The notes under the pieces were generated by a model. It saw only the letters and a program-made list of their open reading frames with translations, was not told the DNA's origin and did not search any database. A stretch of 64,000 nt of DNA from Dictyostelium discoideum (lineage: Eukaryota): the NCBI GenBank assembly GCA_000004695.1, contig CM000151.3, positions 5,184,001 to 5,248,000 of the forward strand. Direction: 5' to 3'. Position 1 is the first letter of the stretch, and the number at the start of each line of letters is the position of its first letter. Shown here in pieces: positions 58,381 to 58,610 of this stretch. Made by a program: the position numbers and the translations under genes.

Positions 58381-58610
58381 ATGACCATTACTTGTAATTA
58401 TTTCTATATTTTTTATTTATTTTAAATTTATTAGTTTAAAACATATTAAAATATTTTTATTTTTAAAATAATTATTTAGATTCAATTGTTAATTTTTTAA
58501 ACCAAAAGGCTAGTGGATCTAATGGCGAAATTTCATCAAACATTGTTAGATTATCAAACTTTGGTAAAATTTCTGTTGCTGGTGGACATTGGAATAATGG
58601 AGGCCACTAG
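58381..58610 (+). CDS. hssA/2C/7E-family small protein, 49 aa, 2 exons (58381..58393, 58480..58610).
   Basis: Exon 1 is ATGACCATTACTT|GTAATT (MTIT, phase 1). The acceptor is attatttag (58478-58479). The joined protein is MTITYSIVNFLNQKASGSNGEISSNIVRLSNFGKISVAGGHWNNGGH*. It has the same 13-nt first-exon architecture and a similar Gly/Ser/Asn-rich body to the 56500..56853 copy. It is GC-richer than the surrounding DNA and overlaps track ORF 58513..58716 in another frame. Confidence 0.5.

Follow-up and report, generated by a model that had tools for sequence, protein, structure and literature searches.

In the 64,000-nucleotide stretch of Dictyostelium discoideum DNA that we analysed (hereafter the window), a candidate micro-gene occupies positions 58381-58610 of the plus strand, in the AT-rich spacer between an NmrA-like gene and a P2X receptor gene. 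Exact look-up of spliced translations identified the larger genes around it as conditioned medium factor (cmfA, from 52396, plus strand), NmrA-like DDB_G0275053 (55346-56349) and P2X receptor B (p2xB, DDB_G0275293; 59218-60505, plus strand). The spacer itself holds two further gene models on the minus strand: a copy of the hssA/2C/7E family at 56500-56853, and the 40-aa hypothetical protein DDB_G0275193 at 57548-57670, also identified by exact look-up of its translation.

Two observations concern the larger genes. First, the window carries two tandem P2X receptor genes (59218-60505 and ~62750-63570, plus strand), and the near identity of their C-terminal halves at the protein level indicates a recent duplication or gene conversion. 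Second, the first exon of cmfA (52396-54303, plus strand; a 635-aa ORF) is found word for word on seven short (2-kb) Logan contigs (L004-L010). All seven end at TAT repeats or A-runs, which illustrates why assemblies from short reads seldom span the intergenic DNA of this genome.

A two-exon gene model already in the public record

The candidate gene is minimal. Its ATG (58381-58383), immediately preceded by AAA, opens an exon 1 whose coding part is the 13-nt ATGACCATTACTT (58381-58393; M T I T plus one nucleotide). A phase 1 intron of 86 nt follows (58394-58479; GTAATT...TTTAG; GC 5.8%), and exon 2 of the annotated CDS runs for 131 nt (58480-58610), including a TAG stop at 58608-58610. With the exon-intron boundaries marked by ^, the locus reads aataaaATGACCATTACTT^GTAATT...TTATTTAG^ATTCAATT... 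The unusual GTAATT donor also occurs in intron 1 of the annotated p2xB model. Upstream, positions 58240-58380 form the putative promoter and 5' leader, a role suggested by an A/T-rich, TATA-like stretch with a run of 12 T (~58300-58335).

The spliced product is MTITYSIVNFLNQKASGSNGEISSNIVRLSNFGKISVAGGHWNNGGH, a peptide of 47 residues that includes the stretch MTITYSIVNFLNQK... The original prediction, made by reading the sequence, was exact in its coordinates, from the 13-nt first exon to the acceptor at 58479, and miscounted the product, which it gave as 49 aa. Its description of a GC-enriched island also holds: exon 2 is 33% GC, against 6-15% in its surroundings and 22% in the window. The GC-rich, conserved block extends beyond the annotated stop to ~58643, where an in-frame continuation (58611-58643) encodes NHWNKGGNHW before a TAA. 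A tail repeat visible by eye spans this boundary in frame, with CATTGGAAYAAWGGAGG at 58587 and 58614 and then CATTGG at 58635; Tandem Repeats Finder did not report this short HWN(N/K)GG repeat.

Codon usage singles out the proposed frame among the sense frames, with scores of +13.6 to +37.9 bits; the other two score +1.4 to -43 bits. One antisense frame across the candidate is also open and scores as high, but it lacks a start codon and has no Pfam match, and we rejected an opposite-strand gene. Exon 2 contains no in-frame ATG, GTG or TTG, which is why a mechanical ORF list offers only an out-of-frame 67-aa ORF (58513-58716), as had been correctly observed before. We discarded this ORF as a gene, its sole match being a sub-threshold one to DUF746 that we attribute to chance.

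The start of the gene carries a rare signature. On both strands of the window (128 kb), the pattern ATGACNATHNNNNGT, combining MTI, a 13-nt exon and a GT donor, was observed three times against 0.24 expected (~2e-6 per position), a 12-fold enrichment over chance. Two of the three matches are the candidate and the neighbouring hssA/2C/7E copy at 56853 (minus strand). The third, at 32039-32053 (plus strand), is a chance match inside a long PI3-kinase-like ORF and not a small gene; that ORF bears PI3/PI4-kinase catalytic motifs (...HIDFGHFLGNFK...).

The candidate had been taken for an unannotated gene, which is incorrect. The 47-aa product is 100% identical over its full length to the hypothetical protein DDB_G0275291 of D. 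discoideum AX4 (EAL69926.1, XP_643829.1, UniProt Q86I49; a singleton cluster), encoded on chromosome 2 and adjoining p2xB. Because the product equals XP_643829.1, the exon-intron model read from the sequence coincides exactly with the one in public databases. The public record is sparse: DDB_G0275291 has no Pfam domain on record, NCBI and UniProt label it hypothetical or uncharacterized, it carries neither an hssl nor a sigN name in public databases, and the paper texts that we searched do not mention it.

Database searches returned the gene itself and nothing else. A word search of 5.8e9 proteins with the peptide gave DDB_G0275291 as the single match, and no protein resembling it from newer Dictyostelium assemblies. 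Likewise, phmmer against 1.84 billion (1.84e9) representative proteins recovered only the peptide, with no homologue, and exact exon 2 strings had no match in two metagenome scans. Looking up the ORFs at 55720-56349, 58513-58716 and 58522-58716 for contigs that encode them gave no recorded match. DDB_G0275291 is thus an ordinary, already catalogued orphan gene whose model has been public since the genome project.

The neighbouring hssl25-like copy

The copy at 56500-56853 is a true member of the hssA/2C/7E family. On the minus strand, its 13-nt exon 1 (56853-56841) is followed by an intron (56840-56769) and exon 2 (56768-56500); its product scores 40.6 bits against the family profile PF05710, and its identity to HssA/B-like protein 25 and relatives is 55-61%. 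It had been described as lying 1.8 kb from the candidate on the opposite strand with the same first-exon length. Strand and exon length stand, and the distance shrinks: the two genes are arranged head-to-head with their ATGs only 1528 nt apart, an arrangement also kept in D. cf. discoideum. The loci of hssl25 relatives (L001-L003) show no synteny with this window.

In AX4 this copy looks like a pseudogene. An in-frame TGA (56736-56734) occupies a codon that is a conserved TCA (Ser16) both in the D. cf. discoideum orthologue and in three relatives, and ~24 nt are deleted at two places. The D. cf. discoideum orthologue is intact, at 101 aa and 45.3 bits. An older 63-aa model of the AX4 copy, found only in UniParc, splices around the TGA.

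Conservation within the D. discoideum complex

We compared the locus with the syntenic regions of D. cf. discoideum strain 'FIY' (L012) and D. citrinum (L011), reached via orthologues of the neighbouring genes. The p2xB and NmrA proteins are 95-98% identical to those of AX4 in FIY and ~92% identical in D. citrinum. None of the intervening annotated genes, whether inspected directly at these two loci or deduced from consecutive locus tags in newer assemblies, corresponds to the candidate.

FIY retains the gene structure in its DNA. The ATG, the 13-nt exon (ATGACTATTGCTT), a GTAATTA donor, a TTTTAG acceptor and the reading frame are all kept. At the AX4 stop codon, FIY has TGG (Trp) instead of TAG, so its ORF, MTIAYSIVNCLNKKASGSNGEISSNIVSLSNYGKITVVGGHWNNGGHWNHWNKRGNHW, runs for 58 codons to a TAA corresponding to AX4 58641-58643. 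This longer ORF accounts for the GC-rich block and the HWN(N/K)GG repeat past the AX4 stop. We infer that the change ran from TGG to TAG, cutting the AX4 ORF from 58 to 47 codons.

Exon 2 stands out from the DNA around it. Taken through to the TAA (164 nt), it is 93.3% identical between AX4 and FIY with no gaps, compared with ~81% for the DNA flanking it. The intron (71%), the 5' flank (82%) and the 3' flank (71%) all contain gaps, and a sliding-window profile of the spacer shows exon 2 as a distinct block at 92-95%. The same split is seen in p2xB and NmrA, whose exons are 94-99% identical without gaps and whose introns are 77-82% identical with gaps. A local rise in the putative promoter reaches 88% identity at 58240-58329 against 68% just upstream.

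In D. citrinum the homologous block upstream of p2xB is 72% identical, and both donor and acceptor are conserved there as in AX4 and FIY. The ATG is replaced by ATT, the AX4-type frame is broken by a deletion of 2 nt near the beginning of exon 2, and a TGA lies opposite the AX4 TAG at a poorly aligned position. The ORF that remains there, IQLFLSNKKDCGGIDCETSLRIVCLSNFGKIVLSCGSNWNYN, contains four Cys and lacks a start codon.

The comparison also brought up several features of the two other genomes. D. citrinum has ~4 kb between the NmrA-like gene and p2xB that is absent from AX4 (L011, 3400-9700). This segment holds two ORFs, one of 625 aa (4143-6020) that is FNIP-repeat-like and one of 470 aa (7139-8551) that is Ser/Thr-rich and looks secreted. 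In the D. citrinum annotation the second ORF is stretched into a model of 564 aa, and the last exon of that model (9530-9658) is homologous to candidate exon 2; the model is probably over-extended. In FIY, the p2xB model (L012, 10001-11558) has 430 aa and runs past the ...HNIEAL end conserved in every other p2xB orthologue, and its 61-aa low-quality C-terminal extension is likely an annotation error.

The leading alternative to a working gene is that the locus is a functionless relic, a pseudogene of an hssA/sigN gene, whose exon appears conserved merely relative to an A/T homopolymer-rich, slippage-prone spacer. Several observations suit decay: AX4 has a nonsense codon where its sister lineage has TGG, D. 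citrinum has lost the start codon and shifted the frame, the partner copy, 1.5 kb off, itself looks like a pseudogene in AX4, the family hallmarks past residue ~40 are all gone, and no newer annotation calls the gene. The protein is also only 83% identical between AX4 and FIY, well below its neighbours, and its dN/dS of 0.49 is indistinguishable from 1: with 8 non-synonymous and 4 synonymous changes, neutrality is not rejected (p = 0.21; 12 changes), and p2xB and NmrA stand at 0.08 and 0.10 in the same comparison.

The nucleotide data argue against such a relic. Mismatches affect 6.7% of exon 2 but 19.2% of the non-coding columns without gaps (Fisher p = 1e-5), which puts the exon at one third of the non-coding rate, and the contrast persists at G/C positions only (p ~1.5e-5). 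It spans 164 nt free of indels, while introns and flanks are rich in them; 383 of the 2326 columns of the non-coding alignment are gap columns. Two lineages keep an intact ATG and intact splice sites at both ends of the intron. Overall, the candidate has accumulated substitutions at roughly half the synonymous level seen in p2xB and NmrA (Poisson p ~0.004). Weighing both sides, we consider a relic unlikely, though it is the competitor to be taken most seriously.

If the exon is constrained, the constraint could instead belong to a non-coding functional element, either a distal regulator of p2xB or a small RNA, with the gene model an ab initio artefact. The p2xB gene lies 575 nt downstream, and similarly strong conserved blocks lie in the same spacer at 57040-57219, 58090-58209 and 58990-59199 (87-100% identity between AX4 and FIY), the last, just upstream of p2xB, probably being its promoter. 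The open antisense frame, a dN/dS compatible with neutrality and the use of the homologous block by D. citrinum annotation in an unrelated model all lend this idea some weight, as does the adjacent DDB_G0275193. Windows across that 40-aa model are 8-50% identical to FIY, against 73-85% in the flanking spacer; it is essentially unconserved and, unlike DDB_G0275291, is probably a spurious gene model.

Against a non-coding element stands the coding signal. The MTI, 13-nt, GT signature sits in the right place and phase despite its low expectation, it is conserved in FIY together with the acceptor, and the sense frame shows proper coding periodicity. An RNA gene is disfavoured as well: the candidate has no Rfam match (gathering score or E<=1), no tRNA by ARAGORN and no excess of RNA structure (fold z = -0.39). 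We judge a non-coding element improbable. Constraint on the exon within the D. discoideum species complex suggests that the candidate is probably a working, fast-evolving and lineage-restricted gene.

Relation to the hssA/2C/7E family

In gene structure, the candidate follows the hssA/2C/7E (sigN) family closely. A 13-nt exon 1 ORF is a hallmark of the family, present in 89 of 96 genes (PMC2257962), and is likewise given as a family feature elsewhere (PMC6198379). Sampling three other Dictyostelium genomes, we confirmed this layout in four hssl25-like genes, each beginning ATGACAATCATTG^GT. The candidate has two exons, the same exon 1 length and intron phase as these ATGACAATCATTG^GT genes, and an 86-nt intron that falls inside the family range of 66-128 nt. 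Its genomic setting agrees too: family members cluster in the genome, frequently as pairs in opposite orientation, and the candidate is paired head-to-head with a PF05710 copy. Expansion of the family has been proposed to proceed from tandems of two opposed genes (PMC2257962).

The candidate does not pass the profile and composition tests of membership. A profile search against the family had been named beforehand as a check that could refute the assignment, and it was negative for the candidate: PF05710 (gathering score 21.4 bits) gave no match at E<=10, whether queried with the 47-aa peptide or its 58-aa read-through, with residues 1-40, or with the FIY orthologue of 58 aa. The neighbouring copy and its FIY orthologue, as positive controls, were both found. 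In composition the peptide has 7 Ser, 7 Asn, 7 Gly and no Cys, and it lacks a Gly/Leu-rich core and a C-terminal CGC motif; family members are small Ser/Gly/Cys-rich proteins with ~4 Cys and usually 60-120 aa. Nor does any chromosome 2 gene in the 96-gene table (PMC2257962, Additional file 1) combine a 47-aa product with an 86-nt intron.

Between these extremes lies a weak similarity at the N-terminus, colinear from Met1 with the hssl25-like subfamily. The candidate begins MTI..SI..N.K.S, a match with a shuffle p of ~0.002-0.005. Over residues 1-17, hhalign gives an alignment with 47% identical positions, a P of 0.006-0.008 and a probability of 5-6%. The Smith-Waterman score against hssl25-like proteins was matched by 13-15 of 3000 shuffles, and an unfiltered HMM gave 9.4 bits over residues 1-41, a score reached by 10 of 5000 shuffles. 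At the nucleotide level, 29 of the first 42 CDS positions are identical to the neighbouring copy, as high as in 28 of 2000 codon shuffles. All these comparisons with a profile draw on a single subfamily, the hssl25-like one, represented by 5-6 sequences. When the hssl25 alignment was itself used as a search profile, it recovered only the same six proteins, and Gly-rich words saturated the candidate list of that search.

The proposed assignment to the hssA family is therefore partly supported. The 13-nt exon, a weak N-terminal similarity and the position speak for it, but the PF05710 profile, the Cys/Gly body and the 96-gene list do not. By the family's definition DDB_G0275291 does not qualify as a member: it copies the family's architecture but fails its profile and composition tests. 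Descent is a different question. Given the intron position, the head-to-head adjacency and the N-terminus, we think it likely that the candidate derives from the hssA/sigN family. An independent orphan whose 13-nt exon and MTI start arose by coincidence or convergence is very improbable: the empty profile searches and a similarity limited to ~17-40 low-complexity residues (p only ~0.002-0.008) would suit it, but three independent weak signals, in intron position and phase, N-terminal motif and head-to-head adjacency, coincide, and the family literature takes this kind of gene layout as pointing to shared ancestry (PMC2257962).

A proposed reading: a shortened micro-gene built on a family template

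Combining these observations, we lean towards a real, lineage-restricted micro-gene with hssA/sigN architecture, likely derived from the adjacent copy, that evolves fast, is constrained and has been shortened in AX4. Its layout would follow the family template, in which an A/T-rich promoter leads to an ATG and a 13-nt ORF start (MTIx), then to a short AT-rich intron and a single exon holding the rest. The most likely origin would be a local duplication that involved its head-to-head family neighbour at a distance of 1.5 kb. The protein body would then have changed until no kinship was recognisable, giving a Cys-free peptide rich in Ser, Asn and Gly whose tail is an HWN(N/K)GG repeat. In AX4, the nonsense change would have reduced the ORF from 58 to 47 codons.

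Transcription and splicing of the candidate are predicted from the gene model, and its role can be proposed by analogy with the family. Expression of the family is induced from ~10 h and partly depends on SrfA. Members of hssA/2C/7E are expressed late in development in prestalk or cup cells, their products are small and possibly secreted, and for hssA itself an effect has been attributed to the transcript (PMC6198379; PMC2257962). By this analogy, DDB_G0275291 may give a late-developmental prestalk or cup transcript, acting either as an RNA or through a small secreted or matrix peptide.

A more specific history can be sketched tentatively. The candidate might be a young gene that re-used a 5' module of the neighbouring hssA/sigN gene, joined it to new sequence carrying the HWN(N/K)GG tail, came under selection within the D. 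discoideum species complex and was freshly truncated in the laboratory strain AX4. On the same speculative footing, that module would take in the 13-nt exon with its promoter-proximal ATG, the intron and the opening 17-40 codons. If this is true, the locus would record a small, datable gene birth and early decay within a rapidly expanding developmental family.

As the model of DDB_G0275291 has been public since the genome project, its recovery here carries little weight as a discovery. What we add is its architectural and positional link to hssA/sigN, which public records do not state. The link ties an orphan to a family by architecture and position and not by profile, and is offered as a hint for curators. 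Conservation likewise backs this tiny model and not the adjacent 40-aa DDB_G0275193. Relative to FIY, both AX4 members of the head-to-head pair carry premature stops, which is relevant to anyone studying the hssA/sigN family in the AX4 reference.

Comparison with known systems

The system closest to the candidate is the hssA/2C/7E family itself (sigN, HssA/B-like; Pfam PF05710 'Coiled'), with ~96-100 genes in D. discoideum, and the nearest subfamily sampled is that of HssA/B-like protein 25 (DDB_G0275819). The candidate resembles the family in having two exons and a 13-nt exon 1 ORF that starts ATGACxATy (MTI), in its short AT-rich intron and in its N-terminal MTI..SI...N.K.S with a later FG..SV.GG. 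Its product is tiny, and its chromosome 2 locus faces a true family copy head-to-head. It differs in length (47 aa, or 58 in the sister lineage, compared with typically 60-120 aa), in having zero Cys compared with about four, and in giving no PF05710 match. It also lacks the Gly/Leu-rich core and the C-terminal CGCN/CGC motif, and its HWN(N/K)GG repeat tail is unlike the sampled family members.

Truncated forms are nonetheless known. The shortest entries in the 96-gene list are sigN178 (43 aa, chromosome 4), sigN154 (49 aa, chromosome 3) and sigN183 (56 aa, chromosome 3) (PMC2257962). Compared through their table entries, sigN178 and sigN154 are comparable to the candidate in size and share its 13-nt exon 1 layout; sigN183 is similar in size with an exon 1 ORF of 10 nt. 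Their listing shows that truncated family derivatives exist and are counted as members. Unlike DDB_G0275291, these three were found by similarity to SigN1 (16-44% identity). The neighbouring copy at 56500-56853 is the other natural comparison: it has its architecture and, probably, a local origin in common with the candidate, but, unlike it, is a clear PF05710 member that carries the SCGG and QCGCN motifs.
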